Made by a program: the position numbers. From NCBI GenBank assembly GCA_016178595.1, contig JACOSY010000053.1, positions 114-64,113 on the forward strand: DNA of 64,000 nt, written 5' to 3'. Below are positions 24,001 through 36,000 of the stretch, in pieces; positions within the stretch are counted from its first letter, which is position 1; every line of letters begins with the position of its first letter. Origin of the DNA: Ignavibacteria bacterium. GTDB taxonomy: Bacteria; Bacteroidota; Ignavibacteria; UBA10030; SZUA-254.

Positions 24001-27000
24001 AGCACGAAATCCGAAACAAGTCCGAAATTCTAAATACTAAATGGATAGTCAATACGGTTGTCCTTTGAATTTTGAGATTAGTATTTGTTTCGTATTTAGA
24101 TATTGATATTTAGAGTTTTTGTAACGTCCTATTCTTTGTAAATCTTCACCATCGGTTTTCCATTCTCATCGATGTAACCACGGTACATCCCTTCGGTGTT
24201 GAACGGCATCGTGAAGTTGCCATTCTTGTCGAGCGCGATCAATCCGCCTGTGCCGTGAATCCTGCCGATCGTTTCGATCGCCTTCTCCGCCGCTTTCTGT
24301 ACCGTCATGCCGCTGCTTTCCATCAACATCGATACGCTGTGCGCGGCAACTGCGCGGATGAAGTACTCGCCGTCGCCCGTGCACGAGACCGCACACGTCG
24401 CGTTGTTCGCGTATGTCCCCGCTCCAATGATCGGTGAATCGCCCACACGGCCGAAGCGTTTGTTCGTCGTCCCGCCGGTCGATGTTCCTGCGGCAAGGTT
24501 ACCGTACTCGTCGAGCGCAACGCAGCCAACGGTACCGTGCCTGCCTTCCGCTGAATCTGCGGGTGTTCCTTTCACTTTCTTAATCGAGTCCTGCTTCTCC
24601 TTCTCGATTGCCGTCTGCAACTGATCCCACCGGCGTTGCGTGAAGAAATATTCCTGCGGTACCATCTCGACTCCTTGAGATTTCCCAAACGCCTCCGCGC
24701 CGTCACCGACAAGCATCACGTGCGGCGACTTCTCCATGACGAGCCGCGCAAGACCGATCGGGTTCTTCACGTGCTTCACCGCTGCAACCGCTCCCGCCCT
24801 CAGCGTCTTTCCGTCCATGATGGAAGCGTCAAGCTCGTTCGTTCCTTCGTGCGTGAAGACGGCTCCTTTGCCGGCGTTGAAGAGCGGCGAGTCTTCCAGA
24901 ATCCTGATGACGGTTTCGACGGCGTCGAGGCTCGTGCCGTGTTTCTGCAAAACTGCGTAGCCCGCTTCAAGCGCTTCGGTCAGCTTTTCGTAGTATTGTT
25001 TCTCCTTCTCGGCCGTCATGCTTGCCTTTGTAATCGTTCCTGCACCGCCGTGAATTACCAATCTCACACGATGATTGGGAGTTGTACTCTCTTGTGCAAC
25101 AGCAAGCTGTATGAAAGCAAAGCTGATGGCTACACATAACAGCGAGAGAATGTTGACGCGTGATCGACGAAAGCGGTTCATAGTCATCCTCGTGGAGTAT
25201 TGGTTTGAATGCCGACTGTCTTGCGGTGAATGTACCATAATTGGAGGAAAGATTCAATCGACCGTTGATTGGGCGGGAGGTTTTTCGTATATTGGAAGGC
25301 ACAATTCTCACGGGACGCTTAGCTCAGCTGGTTCAGAGCGCTGCCCTTACAAGGCAGAGGTCGTAGGTTCGAACCCTACAGCGTCCACACTTCTTTTTCG
25401 TACTTACTTCTTCTATCTCATATTTCCTATGATCATCGCAATCGCAAGTACGCGCGGACCGAAAGTTGAAGCGGCAAGGAGGGTGCTTCAGAGGATCGGT
25501 CGGTATCTTTCCTCATCACCCTCTGAATTCCTCACGTATGACGTCGATGGCGGAATCGACATGCCACGCTCGCTCGACGATCTCATGCGTGGCGCCGAGC
25601 AGCGCGTGATTCGCTTGCAGCAGGCTCTCCGTTCAGAAGGGAAACATGCAGACTACTTCGTCGGCATGGAAGGAGGATTCCACAGCGTCCATCATAACGG
25701 AAACGCCATGGTATTCCTTCAAAGTTGGGCGTACGTCAGCGACGGACAGAACGGTTACTTCGGAAGTTCAGGGAATGTCGCAGTGCCGGACGTTCTCGTG
25801 GAGGAAGTCATGGCCAAGCGGCGAGATCTTGGCATCGTCATCGATGAAGTTGCACAGCAGCACGACGTGCGGAGCAAACAAGGAACGTGGGGAATTCTGA
25901 CAAAAGACTTGTTGACACGGCAGGAATCGTTTGAAGCTGCATTGCTTGCGGCATTCGCTCCCTTCTACAACCGCGAGATGTACTTCGATCGGATGTGAAT
26001 TACTGCAGCATCTCGTTTTCCAACGAAGTTGTTACATACAAGAGACAACCCTTCTCGGTCCAGTGTTTCAGATGCACACTGTTTTCATCGGCACGCTGGT
26101 AGTCGCCGGCATGCAACACCAGTGAATCGCCGATACGGAGATCGCCTTCAAGGACAAGACATTCCTCGGTGTGCGCATGACGGTGACTGGGATACGATGC
26201 ACCGGGAGCCATTCGCACCAAGACGCTCATAACATTATTTATCGTGTCGGTGAAGAGCATTTTGAGCTGTACGCCTTCCACGCCGGTTTCTTGCCAAGCG
26301 AGAGCATTGGAGTATGTAACAAAGAGACCGGGATGTGGAGTCTCCGTCGCAATCAATTCGTCTTGCGTAAGTCGGGCCATAAGTCGCTCTTTCACGTGAG
26401 GCCGAGGAGATACGCGGGCATCGGTTCGCGCGAGTACTTCGACCGCCTCGCCGAGCGAACGCAATTCATCCGCACATTCGTCGCATCCCTGGAGAAGATG
26501 CTTCTCATAGAGAGCAAGATCGTTGCCTGTCAGCAACCCGAGCACATAGAGCGAACAATATTCACGGAGCTCACAATTCATGAGTATACTTTCTTCAATT
26601 CCGGATAGGAAGCGAATTGTTCGCGAAGCGCGAGCAAACCAAGACGCATGCGCGACTTCACCGTTCCAAGCGGCAGCGTCAATTTTTCTGCAAGCTCCGA
26701 TTGGCTGTAACCTTCATAATACGCAAGCTCGATGAGGCGTCGTTGATCCTGCGGCAATTGCAAGAGCGCCTCTCGGACCATCACTGCCGCCTGAGTTGCC
26801 GTGGCGATCTCATGCGGATCGCGTGCGGGATCGGCAGTGTCGTTGAGAGGACTTTCGTCGATCTCGACCTGGTGTCTCCGGATGCGATTGCCTTTCGATC
26901 GCCATAGGTCGATCGACTTGTTTCTTGCGATGCGAATCAACCACACGCAAGGAGTACCCAGGCAGGCATTGTACGTCGAGGCAGACCGCCATACTTGGAG

Positions 27001-33000: not shown

Positions 33001-36000
33001 GGTGTGTGTTTGGTTCTTGATGTGAATTTCATAATGAATATTTTCACCAAAGGTGGTGTAATTCGGTCCGCCTTCGGGAAGTTCCAACGGAATGTAGTTG
33101 GCAATGATCGTGACCATGTTGGTGTCGTCCGGCGAGCGGAAAACGTAGAGATCGGTATTATCTGCAAGCGGATCGCTACTGATCAGCGGTGCTTCACGGT
33201 GGCTGGATGCATCCGTTTGTCGGGTCACACCGACGAGGGCGAGAACGACCAGACAGATGCTCAGCCCGGCAACAAGTAAGAACTTCTTCATGGATAACTC
33301 CTTGATGTGAGTGGATTGAAAGATGAATTGATTATTCGGTGTCGTCGAATTCTTGCACAAAGAACTTTTGAATCGGTCAAATCCGGCTAAAACAGGAGAA
33401 GTTACTCCACATTTGACAAGAACACCAAGAATACGAAGCAGACCAAAAATCGGATCACAAATCATTAGCCAATTAATAACAAACCGGGGAAGCCTTTCCA
33501 ATGCTACCGAAGGGCTTCCCCGTTAACTTTATGTCCTCTCCCACATGAAGTTCTCAACAGAGAACTTCGATGAGGTCGTGGTTAATTATTTGACGTACAG
33601 AGCCTTCTTCACTGAAACAACTTTATCGCCAACCTGCAACGAATAATAATACGTTCCCGTCGCAACGTTGCTCGGGCTCCATGTTGCGGAATACGTTCCG
33701 GGAGCTTGCTCTTGATCGACGAGCGAGGCGACTTCCTGGCCCACGGTGTTGTAAACCCGAAGCTTCACCACATCGGCCTTGGATAAATGATACTTAATTT
33801 CGGTCGATGGATTGAACGGGTTCGGATAATTCTGCTCGAGCAAGAATGCTTCCGGCGCACTCATTCCGAGGAATCCCGACTGCACAGTCTTCGGCATCGC
33901 GCCCGGCGCAGAAGCGGTCAATCGCTTCACGTAGTCGTATCCCCGATGCGGAGGCGCCAGGTATGGGAATGAAGAAAGCAAGGGAACGTCGTTCTTCGTT
34001 GGCCCCGCATTGTACGTTAACTCTGCGACAAGCTTGGGCGAAGCAAGATCGGAATAATTCCCCGCTGCTGCATCATCGAACGGAAGCCCGACTGCTGCAA
34101 GAACCAATCCACCTACTGCCTGAAGCTCAATCGTTGTAACGTCGTCTTCCAATCGCCGACCATTCGGGAATCCATCCATATGTGGAATAGCTTCGAGGTT
34201 TTTGTTCGTGTTGAAAGGCGCAGCCGTCAATCCGATTGCCGCAGCACGAATCAAGCCCATGCGAGCATTCATCGAATATTCCTCCGTTCCGCGAGGAGTC
34301 GCGGGAGTTGCCATGTTGAGCCTAAGCAAGTCTCCACCGTACAGCTTCCCGGCATCGTTCGTAATCGGCAGGAAGTTATGAATGAAGGGCTTGCCGGCGC
34401 TCAACGGACCGCCGGTCTTGCCTGTTGCAAGCTGGTATGGAATCGCATTCGGCACACCGAAATAGAAAATGGGAAAGATATCGACAAGTCGCGGTTGAGC
34501 CGGACCAAGCAATCCCGGCTGTACCGGAACTGCGAATGCCGTGCCGCTCACATCGAGACCCGGTATGTGTGTCGCAGCGAACGCGCCATCCTTCCCGTTC
34601 CGGAAATCAAATCCCGCCGTCGTGTACCCCGGCAATACGCCAATCGCCGGATACGATTGCGATTGAACCCGCAACGGGCTCAGACCGGGAACCGCACCGC
34701 CGAACTGGCTGTCATCCATGTAGAGCGCAAGCTCCGGATTGGCAAAGTAGTGAACGAACTCCTGCTCATCGGCGCTGTAGGGCGAGACGGCATTCCAGTA
34801 GTCCTTATCTTCGAGCGGAATGATCGCTTCATTCGTCAGCGGCATACCGAGGCGTGAGACTTGCATCCACGGACCGTTCGTCTGGAAGCCTTTCCCCTTC
34901 TCCCGCATGACGCTGATCTTTTGCCGGCTTGCAGATGCCCACACACCTATCACGAAGTCGGGATCGAGAATGCTTGCTGCCTCATTCACCGATTTGCCGT
35001 CTTTCTGCAGGAGATTGATGGGAACCTTCAGAACGATCGCGTGCGTATTGAATCCCGCCACCGCATCGCGCACATTGTTGGAATTGGATGGATCACTCCC
35101 ATAACTGCTTCGGGTCTGACCCAGATCGAAGATACCGCCAAGGTCGACAAAGAATGGATCGTCGCGCGGACCACAGAAGACTTTCTCGCCCGTCGACGCC
35201 GTCGCAATGGCTGAAGCAACGAGCGCGTCGTAGCTTGTGCCGAGACCTGCCCCGCCCTCGATCGAACGCGGACCGATGTTGTTCGGCGGAACGACGCCGT
35301 TGCCGACGATCGTTACGAACGGACCGCCATTGATGCTCTTCTCACACTTATAGCTCGTTTTCAAGTTTTGTTTGCCGAGCCTGATGTTGAAGAACGTCGT
35401 CGGGTCTTCGTTCTTTTGTGTGAACGTGAACCGGTAGGTGATGTCGTCTTTGGCAGAGCCAAGCGTTGTCGCCGTGGTTCGGTTCTTGATGTGGATTTCG
35501 TAGCGAACGTTTTCACCGAAGTTCGAGTAATTTGGCCCGCCTTCGGGAAGTTCAAGTGGAATATAGTTTGCTACGATGGTAACGGTATTGGGATCGTCCG
35601 GCGAACGAAACGCGTAGAGATCCGTGTTATCAGCAAGCGGATCGTTGCTGATAAGCGGCGCTTCCCGGTGACTCGATGCTGTCGTAGGCTGCTGTTGCAG
35701 GAACGTCGCCAGACCGATCACCAGAAATGCCGCAAGAGCGAAGAGAGCTATTCTCCTCATGGTACCCTCCTTCTGTTGTATGGATGAAGTGTTGATTAGC
35801 GCCCATTCCGAAAAAGAAACGTACTCGCGGAATGGCAAAAGGAATACGGAAGGAAGGAGAAATCGGATTATACTTTCTTTTTCTTTTCATCCATGCCCTG
35901 ACAAAAACAGAAATCAGGGATGACTCCCGGCATCAGCTCTTTCGAATGAGGTGGAGGTAATGATGATTGAAATGTAATCCACTTTGTGTTTTTGTACGTA

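Follow-up and report, generated by a model that had tools for sequence, protein, structure and literature searches.

A conserved operon around DUF4331 proteins with a predicted N-terminal metal site in an Ignavibacteria genome

Described systems and the DUF4331 operon

Several kinds of proteins are known whose metal site depends on the N-terminus. An NH2-X-X-His end with a non-proline residue at position 2 is the amino-terminal copper and nickel (ATCUN) motif for Cu(II) and Ni(II), as in serum albumin and histatin-5. In nickel superoxide dismutase, an oxidative-stress enzyme, the metal site is made only after N-terminal processing by a maturation protease, and it uses the terminal amine, a backbone amide, His1 and two cysteines. 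Accessory proteins are known as well. CcmI/CycH is a membrane-anchored periplasmic chaperone of apocytochrome c with tetratricopeptide repeats (TPR), and the large subunit of [NiFe] hydrogenase is exported via its signal-bearing small subunit. The present study deals with a stretch of 64,000 nucleotides from an Ignavibacteria bacterium (GenBank assembly GCA_016178595.1, contig JACOSY010000053.1, positions 114 to 64,113 of the forward strand). This whole stretch is called the window below. It carries two tandem genes of the DUF4331 family (PF14224), DUF4331-A and DUF4331-B, in a module of six genes, and the processed end of their products is predicted to be a metal site of this general kind.

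A related system was described for the so-called anglerase domains. It was found experimentally that N-terminal-His domains on HupE/UreJ-2 permeases bind Cu2+ (Kd ~60–74 nM) and Ni2+ (220 nM) and that DUF6702 and DUF4198 bind Ni2+; capture and assimilation of metal was the role suggested for the permeases with such domains (Franco Cairo et al. 2025, PMC12537917). Because metal-capture proteins with processed N-termini and HupE/UreJ-2 partners have been known since 2025 (PMC12537917), the kind of protein suggested here is not new. Anglerase domains, DUF6702 and DUF4198 are secreted or periplasmic like DUF4331, and the processed N-terminus is the feature with which they bind Cu2+ or Ni2+. The PF13795 permease family and DUF6702 of that system also occur in DUF4331 operons. 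However, its histidine is residue 1, and that of DUF4331 is residue 3. Therefore, DUF4331 is not expected from a His1-anchored search as used in PMC12537917. DUF4331 is also far larger and has its own TPR partner and predicted control by an extracytoplasmic function (ECF) sigma factor. The text of PMC12537917 holds no occurrence of TPR or NicO, and a full-text literature search for 'DUF4331' and 'PF14224' found no paper naming either. In the literature searched, no description was found of DUF4331, its X-X-His register, its fold or its dedicated TPR partner, nor of an N-terminal-His domain on NicO, the variant with a twin-arginine (Tat) carrier or the link to an ECF promoter. If the proposal below is true, the N-terminal-histidine metal-capture proteins would be extended to a family outside His1-anchored searches. 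A likely new fold would be added, and a widespread ECF stress sigma factor would be tied to extracellular metal chemistry and to cargo of the type IX secretion system (T9SS).

Both DUF4331 open reading frames (ORFs) of the window matched the Pfam profile over positions 1–421 of 421, with 398.2 bits (E 7e-119) for A and 392.7 bits (E 3.5e-117) for B against a gathering score of 27 bits. A preliminary description of this DNA had expected this family, and the profile search recovered it. When 1.84 billion cluster representatives were searched, 4,054 matches were obtained at E ≤ 1e-3 and 2,110 at E ≤ 1e-10. At 50% identity the family falls into about 4,000 clusters, so that it ranks among the larger ones without assigned function. 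Carriers include cultured bacteria of soil and aquatic habitats, for example Dyadobacter, Spirosoma, Hymenobacter, Runella, Kribbella and Janibacter. The core is held at 70–80% identity across distant lineages. The family is real, large and strongly constrained. In the AlphaFold2 models, the whole mature A had a predicted local distance difference test score (pLDDT) of 91.7, and its 590-aa core reached a pLDDT of 93.3 with a predicted template modelling score of 0.94. Sequence and profile searches of the PDB with DUF4331 gave no relative; thus the core has no solved counterpart. Its confident model matches no fold of the PDB and is likely a new one.

The comparison covered 80 loci from genomes (mostly Bacteroidota), 80 metagenome loci with the shorter form (mainly from soil) and another 14 loci, and their ORFs were searched with the window proteins. 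The 48 genome loci that extend for 5 kb or more to each side are called fully flanked here. In the window region we see one example of an operon that is conserved across phyla and centred on DUF4331. Over about 160 loci of several phyla, the dedicated TPR gene comes after DUF4331, a NicO or HupE/UreJ-2 gene often does so too, and the sigma/anti-sigma pair often stands ahead of it. The TPR protein had an orthologue in 45 of the 48 fully flanked loci, adjacent and on the same strand in 43 of these, and in 27 of 33 metagenome loci with enough downstream DNA. A permease was found in 24 of the 48 (20 HupE/UreJ-2 and four NicO). Over all genome loci, 29 of 31 permease ORFs lay within 5 kb downstream of DUF4331, and the other two belonged to upstream TPR-HupE pairs. 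The recurrent neighbourhood with metal permeases for which the preliminary description had asked is thus present. NicO or HupE recurs in soil metagenome loci, and the order DUF4331-TPR-NicO recurs in many high-GC metagenome loci and also in actinobacterial and soil loci. A sigma factor was encoded in eight of the 48 fully flanked loci. In the metagenome set, 34 loci had sufficient upstream DNA; a sigma factor was encoded in 12 of these, together with an RskA anti-sigma in nine and a ChrR anti-sigma in one. DUF6702 was encoded in two DUF4331 operons (L006 and L007).

The predicted Ser-Ser-His end and the partner proteins

DUF4331-A (724 aa, 33586..35760, minus strand, start at 35760, with Pfam and NCBIfam matches) and DUF4331-B (727 aa, 31108..33291, minus strand, start at 33291) share the layout that had been noticed before. 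Each has a hydrophobic leader ending in an AxA box, the mature start SSHREAPLIS-DPLADNTDLY and a C-terminal T9SS sorting domain. The signal peptide of A comprises residues 1–28 (35677–35760). The Ser-Ser-His end lies at 35668–35676 in A and at 33199–33207 in B. The core of A extends down to about 33949, and the sorting domains occupy 33604–33828 in A and 31129–31350 in B. The tails of the two ORFs scored 28.3 and 30.9 bits with PF18962 (cut-off 27) and 31.3 and 36.1 bits with TIGR04183 (cut-off 23). The Sec signal peptides were called by inspection together with the cleavage-site statistics given below. By sorting domain and leader, A and B are predicted to be exported as T9SS type A cargo.

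The cleavage-site statistics were taken from 102 cluster representatives with a signal peptide, in which positions were counted back from the histidine. Position H-1 was serine in all 102. Position H-2 was serine in 97, alanine in four and threonine in one, and H-3 was alanine in 93, glycine in five and serine in four. Any residue occurred at H-4, and only A, L, V, T, S, G or I at H-5. The pattern at H-5, H-4 and H-3 points to a signal-peptidase cut AxA|SSH, which would leave NH2-Ser-Ser-His. In a leaderless actinobacterial subfamily, 115 of 119 members start with MSSHREAP (Met-Ser-Ser-His), and no signal peptide was found in the upstream frame of these genes. Excision of methionine before serine is an established rule, so the leaderless forms would give the same Ser-Ser-His end. 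The histidine is thus at predicted mature position 3 and residue 2 is serine, not proline, in 102 of 102; the X-X-His register holds in all 102 signal-peptide forms and in 115 of the 119 leaderless forms. We infer a free α-amine, as in the ATCUN proteins, from the cleavage and methionine-excision rules. The processed end is therefore a candidate ATCUN-type Ni(II)/Cu(II) motif, and metal binding is predicted. The mature N-terminus SSHREAP of the preliminary description is supported by these statistics and can be described more exactly as an X-X-His end. Its wording of a 'His/Glu-rich' motif was overstated, since the motif holds one histidine and one glutamate.

A cut two residues further on, after Ala-Ser-Ser, would make the histidine residue 1 and allow a histidine brace, as in lytic polysaccharide monooxygenases, CopC, YcnI and the anglerases. 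Alanine at -3 and serine at -1 would also satisfy the signal-peptidase rule, and N-terminal-His proteins are known partners of HupE/UreJ-2 (PMC12537917). However, H-4 is free and H-5 is small or aliphatic only, as expected at -2 and -3 of a cut before Ser-Ser, and the two serines need not be invariant if they are merely part of the signal peptide. The 115 leaderless homologues starting with Met-Ser-Ser-His cannot yield His1 at all. Neither the cleavage statistics nor the leaderless starts place the histidine at mature residue 1, and a brace is very unlikely.

Among 118 diverse aligned members, H3, P7, D19 and R275 (mature-chain numbering) are invariant. H3 is found in 118 of 118 and is the sole conserved histidine; no cysteine is conserved. 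A metal site created by N-terminal processing, as proposed for DUF4331, would be analogous to that of nickel superoxide dismutase. On the other hand, there is no relation in sequence or fold, and DUF4331 is without the conserved cysteines. DUF4331 also differs from the ATCUN proteins, in that its tag heads a conserved domain of 590 aa without a solved fold and the next 18 residues are conserved too. The conservation of residues 4–21 goes beyond what a simple tag would explain. Two narrower roles of this segment were considered and rejected. The residue two before His3 is alanine or threonine in five of 102, which speaks against Ser1 as an N-terminal nucleophile. The peptide as a mere TPR-binding motif does not fit the leaderless actinobacterial operons, which keep MSSHREAP without a TPR gene.

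A broader alternative is that DUF4331 is an enzyme or adhesin in which the N-terminal segment has a structural or catalytic part and the link to the permease is indirect. His3 could then act as a general base, and the Asp cluster could bind calcium. In its favour, the conservation of residues 4–21 and of many Asp, Asn and Arg residues equals that of His3, the models show an ordered N-terminus, and half of the loci are without a permease. However, signal peptidase and methionine excision, two unrelated routes, both preserve the free-amine X-X-His register. Besides, three types of metal permease, DUF6702 and a His-rich protein recur beside DUF4331 in different phyla. A role without metal is thus considered improbable.

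The His-rich protein belongs to the leaderless variant (for instance L090 7118–9333, L091 7639–9918 and L092 7682–9775). There, the gene order is a protein of about 90 aa with a Tat signal, leaderless DUF4331 and a protein of about 135 aa with a His-rich loop such as HGHEHGHGHG. The first protein has little beyond the twin-arginine signal (T/S-R-R-x-F-L/V), and no Pfam family was found for either small protein. The arrangement was seen in at least 12 metagenome loci (e.g. L106, L136, L143–L145 and L167). By analogy with the hitchhiker export of [NiFe] hydrogenase, in which a leaderless protein leaves with a signal-bearing partner, the small Tat-signal protein and His-rich accessory protein next to DUF4331 in Actinomycetota suggest export of folded DUF4331 loaded with metal or cofactor. 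The difference is that co-export of DUF4331 would follow from gene order alone, and that the window proteins would use Sec and T9SS instead.

In the window, DUF4331-B is followed by the TPR partner (447 aa, 29675..31018, minus strand), which has an N-terminal membrane anchor (MSIMKKKIIISTLVVAVLLVGTYVV) and matches to TPR families of Pfam. In the TPR partner family, H156, D184, E188, Y192, R214, Y217, R219 and R383 are invariant. As in CcmI/CycH, a single N-terminal anchor and a TPR domain are encoded next to the client. The match to TPR_CcmH_CycH is weak (32 bits, below the cut-off of 42); the TPR partner is not a member of that family, and its chaperone role is suggested by analogy.

The next gene encodes a fused double NicO permease (737 aa, 27440..29653, minus strand; Pfam and NCBIfam). 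It consists of a signal peptide and an extracytoplasmic domain starting His-Pro-Leu-Gly (28949–29653), an RcnA-like NicO half with a His-rich loop (28214–28948) and a NiCoT-like NicO half with HALDSDH and a second His-rich loop (27440–28213). The Pfam NicO score was 77.7 bits against 27.7, in three stretches over the two halves. The NCBIfam nickel/cobalt efflux subfamily gave 115.4 bits, below its cut-off of 195, so that the protein is a relative and not a named RcnA. Nickel or cobalt transport is predicted from the His-rich loops and the motifs HALTPGHGK and HALDSDH. Directly after the signal peptide, the NicO-type permeases start with A|HPLG(N/I)F(T/S)(I/V)N, in the window and in nine other loci (L008, L089, L115, L128, L129, L135, L151, L159 and L161), and the HupE/UreJ-2 permeases with A|H(T/V)INY.L. 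The N-terminal domain of the NicO type is about 210 aa long. Its predicted mature end, His-Pro-Leu-Gly-(N/I)-Phe, is conserved in different phyla, and an EF-hand-like loop, DRNKDGQIDENE, is present in the window copy. The domain belongs to no Pfam family, and PDB sequence and profile searches gave no relative. The whole permease had only chance-level matches in the PDB. The domain looks like an anglerase-type domain on a different permease family.

An alternative is a relay for metal acquisition, in which surface DUF4331 captures scarce Ni, Cu or Co by its N-terminal tag for cytoplasmic use. A TonB-dependent receptor would let the metal through to a DUF4331 copy in the periplasm that is docked on the TPR protein, and from there the metal would reach the N-terminal-His domain of a NicO or HupE/UreJ-2 importer. 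Metal capture and assimilation were proposed for the HupE/UreJ-2 domains (PMC12537917). A TonB-dependent receptor is adjacent in 12 of the 48 fully flanked loci, many Bacteroidota tandems pair a tail-less periplasmic copy with a T9SS-tailed surface copy, and the second NicO half has the importer-type HALDSDH. However, the leaderless forms with their Tat partner and His-rich protein point to loading inside and then export, and the RcnA efflux type is seen in the first NicO half. For a capture tag, a body of 590 aa that keeps such identity across distant lineages is far more than would be needed, and ATCUN sites release metal slowly by established chemistry. Besides, the control is of the ChrR/RskA ECF type, not by a metal repressor or of the FecI/FecR type, and no riboswitch was found in the loci. 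A relay is regarded as possible, if somewhat unlikely.

Regulator pair, promoter-like sites and proposed role

The last two genes encode an ECF sigma factor (199 aa, 26578..27177, minus strand; Sigma70_r2 and r4_2), closest to SigK-like models, and a ChrR-type anti-sigma (193 aa, 26000..26581, minus strand), whose start overlaps the sigma stop by 4 nt. The sigma factor has regions 2 and 4, and it scored 149 bits with PRK12519 (cut-off 222) and 141.9 bits with SigK (cut-off 226), in both cases below the cut-off. The anti-sigma has an N-terminal HLLQGCDEC zinc-binding motif and a C-terminal ChrR cupin. It reached 72.1 bits with Cupin_7 (cut-off 27) and 35 bits with TIGR02451 (cut-off 124.5), and is read as a divergent ChrR-type member.

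A promoter-like site, ATCCGATTTCTCCTTCCTTCCGTA, lies at 35845..35868 (minus strand), 108 nt upstream of the ATG of DUF4331-A, and a second, near-identical copy, ATCCGATTTTTGGTCTGCTTCGTA, lies at 33432..33455 (minus strand), 164 nt upstream of the ATG of DUF4331-B. The 250 nt ahead of the first DUF4331 gene were scanned for ATCC-N16/17-CGTA, with random windows of the same loci as null (200 trials). The motif was present in 29 of 77 loci against 0.87 expected (maximum 3 in the 200 trials) and, in an independent metagenome set, in 21 of 74 against 1.4 expected (maximum 5). The enrichment is 15- to 30-fold across loci, and the motif stands ahead of about a third of the operons. Positions left free in the search are biased as well, with AA before ATCC and A or G after it, which gives the consensus AAATCC(A/G)-N15/16-CGTA. 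In L001 and L076 the motif was also found upstream of the sigma gene. We infer promoter activity of these sites from their sequence and position. A match at 35977 on the plus strand and five other matches in the window were taken as chance, since the information content of the pattern predicts about four in 128 kb of two-strand sequence. A sigma-70 promoter scan remained at chance level, and Chauhan 2016 gives no SigK promoter motif for comparison.

Between the two promoter-like sites, a hairpin, GGGGAAGCC...GGCTTCCCC then GGTTTGTTATT, follows gene A at 33486..33521 (minus strand). Its folding energy is -25.1 kcal/mol (z -3.2), none of 200 shuffled sequences folds as well, and it has a T-rich tail. 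It is likely an intrinsic terminator or attenuator. A hairpin with a T-rich tail between two promoter-like sites fits two transcription units.

The regulator resembles the RpoE-ChrR (ECF11-type) pairs of singlet-oxygen and peroxide regulons, which have the same zinc-binding N-terminal motif and ChrR cupin in the anti-sigma. The core of the promoter-like sites, ATCC-N16-CGTA, is the same in sequence and spacing, and TGATCC-N16-CGTA is the consensus of the ChrR-type sigma PSPTO_1043 of P. syringae (PMC5507510). In contrast, the -35 element reads AAATCC here and TGATCC there (PMC5507510), the window sigma scores nearest to SigK-like models, many orthologous operons carry an RskA-type anti-sigma, and the known regulons do not list DUF4331. 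The ECF control suggested in the preliminary description is backed by gene adjacency and by the conserved promoter-like motif ahead of both window genes.

Our preferred reading, to which a probability of about 0.4 is given, is that DUF4331 is the end user, an extracytoplasmic metalloprotein with an N-terminal Ni/Cu site which is matured or served by the TPR protein and the permease and induced by a stress ECF sigma factor. Signal peptidase, or methionine excision in the leaderless forms, would expose NH2-Ser-Ser-His. The ligands of Ni(II) or Cu(II) would then be the imidazole of His3, the terminal amine and two amides of the backbone, and the docked, conserved residues 4–21 would probably help in binding. 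The membrane-anchored TPR protein would hold apo-DUF4331 at the inner membrane as CcmI/CycH holds apocytochrome c, and the permease, by its own N-terminal-His domain, would pass metal to DUF4331 or exchange metal with it. Loaded DUF4331 would stay in the periplasm or go to the cell surface by T9SS, as would both window copies. The sigma/anti-sigma pair would switch the operon on under redox, photo-oxidative or metal-linked stress. The role would most likely be envelope stress defence rather than bulk metal nutrition. An end-user metalloprotein is favoured over the uptake relay because of the Tat and His-rich arrangement, the type of regulator and the constraint on the 590-aa body. Features that still speak for the relay are the pairs of a periplasmic and a surface copy, the importer-type families of the permeases and the TonB-dependent receptors.

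Several points weigh against the end-user proposal. R4, E5, A6, P7, D12, D16 and D19 are as conserved as H3, and a bare ATCUN site needs X-X-His only. The first ten mature residues have a pLDDT of about 76–80 in the AlphaFold2 models and are probably docked, so that the site may differ from a textbook ATCUN site or His3 may have a catalytic part. A nearby permease is missing from half of the fully flanked loci, and a nearby sigma factor from most. Those HupE/UreJ and NiCoT relatives that have been studied act as importers, and this agrees better with uptake than with supply. At the -35 element the sequence is AATCC and not TGATCC. Neither nickel or copper enzymes nor metal repressors or riboswitches were found in the loci, and an Rfam scan of the window and four loci at the gathering threshold gave tRNAs only, with no NiCo or cobalamin riboswitch. 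The comparative evidence supports a metal module, with metal binding predicted, and DUF4331 gains a concrete hypothesis with an N-terminal metal site, defined partners and a predicted regulator and promoter. A more specific form of the proposal is rated unlikely. In it, DUF4331 would be a redox metalloenzyme of new fold with a Ni/Cu centre on Ser-Ser-His, matured by the TPR protein and the permease, and the main effector of the ChrR/RskA-controlled ECF sigma factor. On the cell surface and in the periplasm, it would either render reactive oxygen species harmless or repair oxidative damage, as a functional analogue of nickel superoxide dismutase, in Bacteroidota, Ignavibacteriota, Actinomycetota and other soil bacteria.

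A copper context was noticed once, as a weak hint from a single case. In L094 (4015–6273), a cupredoxin gene and a gene of the MbnB/TglH/ChrH family lie 2–4 kb from a short-form DUF4331 gene, on the other strand.

Age of the tandem pair and borders of the module

The two DUF4331 genes had been described as sharing long, near-identical DNA segments, which suggested recent duplication or homogenisation by gene conversion. The comparison does not agree with this view. A and B have 69% protein identity and 68.6% DNA identity, and the longest exact run is 23 nt. The dN was 0.23 and the dS 1.82 (dN/dS 0.13). The strings quoted in support are present at 31853 and 34334; they agree in 45 of 53 positions and code for the conserved peptide FIHNFLPITND(G/A)GKLYG. 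A is nearer to orthologues in other genomes (80–81%) than to B, and B is about 70% identical to everything, with 71% to the second copy of locus L008. This locus of another genome has the same layout, two DUF4331 genes followed by a TPR and a double NicO gene, and tandem DUF4331 genes occur in 29 of the 48 fully flanked loci. Gene conversion may have acted at one place. At codons 526–572 of A, the two copies agree in 72% of the synonymous codons, compared with 46% in the rest of the genes (Fisher p 0.0012, for a region picked post hoc), and this rise is absent from comparisons with orthologues. The tract of about 140 nt lies at 34045–34185 in A and 31570–31710 in B, over the GFPNGRRLEDDV region, and may be a short gene-conversion tract. 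The duplication is old by these values, and a recent origin is refuted for the genes as a whole; large-scale homogenisation is very unlikely, with at most this one tract.

The window pair differs from the usual Bacteroidota tandem in that both copies carry a T9SS tail. In Chitinophagales and Cytophagales, usually one copy is without the tail and one has it. In Bacteroidota tandems such as L018, L019, L040, L061 and others, a tail-less copy of about 585 aa (periplasmic) is accompanied by one or two longer, tailed copies (surface).

The module comprises six genes with short gaps on the minus strand, from 35868 down to 26000. The gene content of the region first delimited as 26000–35760 holds: the TPR protein, the 737-aa double NicO permease, the ECF sigma factor and the ChrR-type anti-sigma with HxxxCxxC and cupin all follow downstream on that strand. 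With the promoter-like site at 35868 as its start, the functional unit reaches slightly beyond that range. GGAGGG precedes the ATG of DUF4331-A, and this protein is 100% identical to a protein of an Ignavibacteriae metagenome-assembled genome. At one end the module is flanked by an epimerase/DUF1731 gene and a SpoU methylase gene, at the other by an NTPase, a tRNA and an asparaginase gene. As these are housekeeping genes, the module has clear borders. The epimerase/DUF1731 and SpoU methylase flank (36048–37893) is common to L001, L008 and the window, and the same flank in three related genomes points to a stable chromosomal position of the module in this lineage.

Elsewhere in the window, another T9SS cargo of 969 aa with DUF1028, an invasin D3 domain and Por_Secre_tail is encoded at 20293–23202 (minus strand). 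Two further ECF-type sigma ORFs lie at 8273–8857 and 11019–11612 (both minus strand), and these are more distant from the operon sigma (E 2e-15 and 2e-12).

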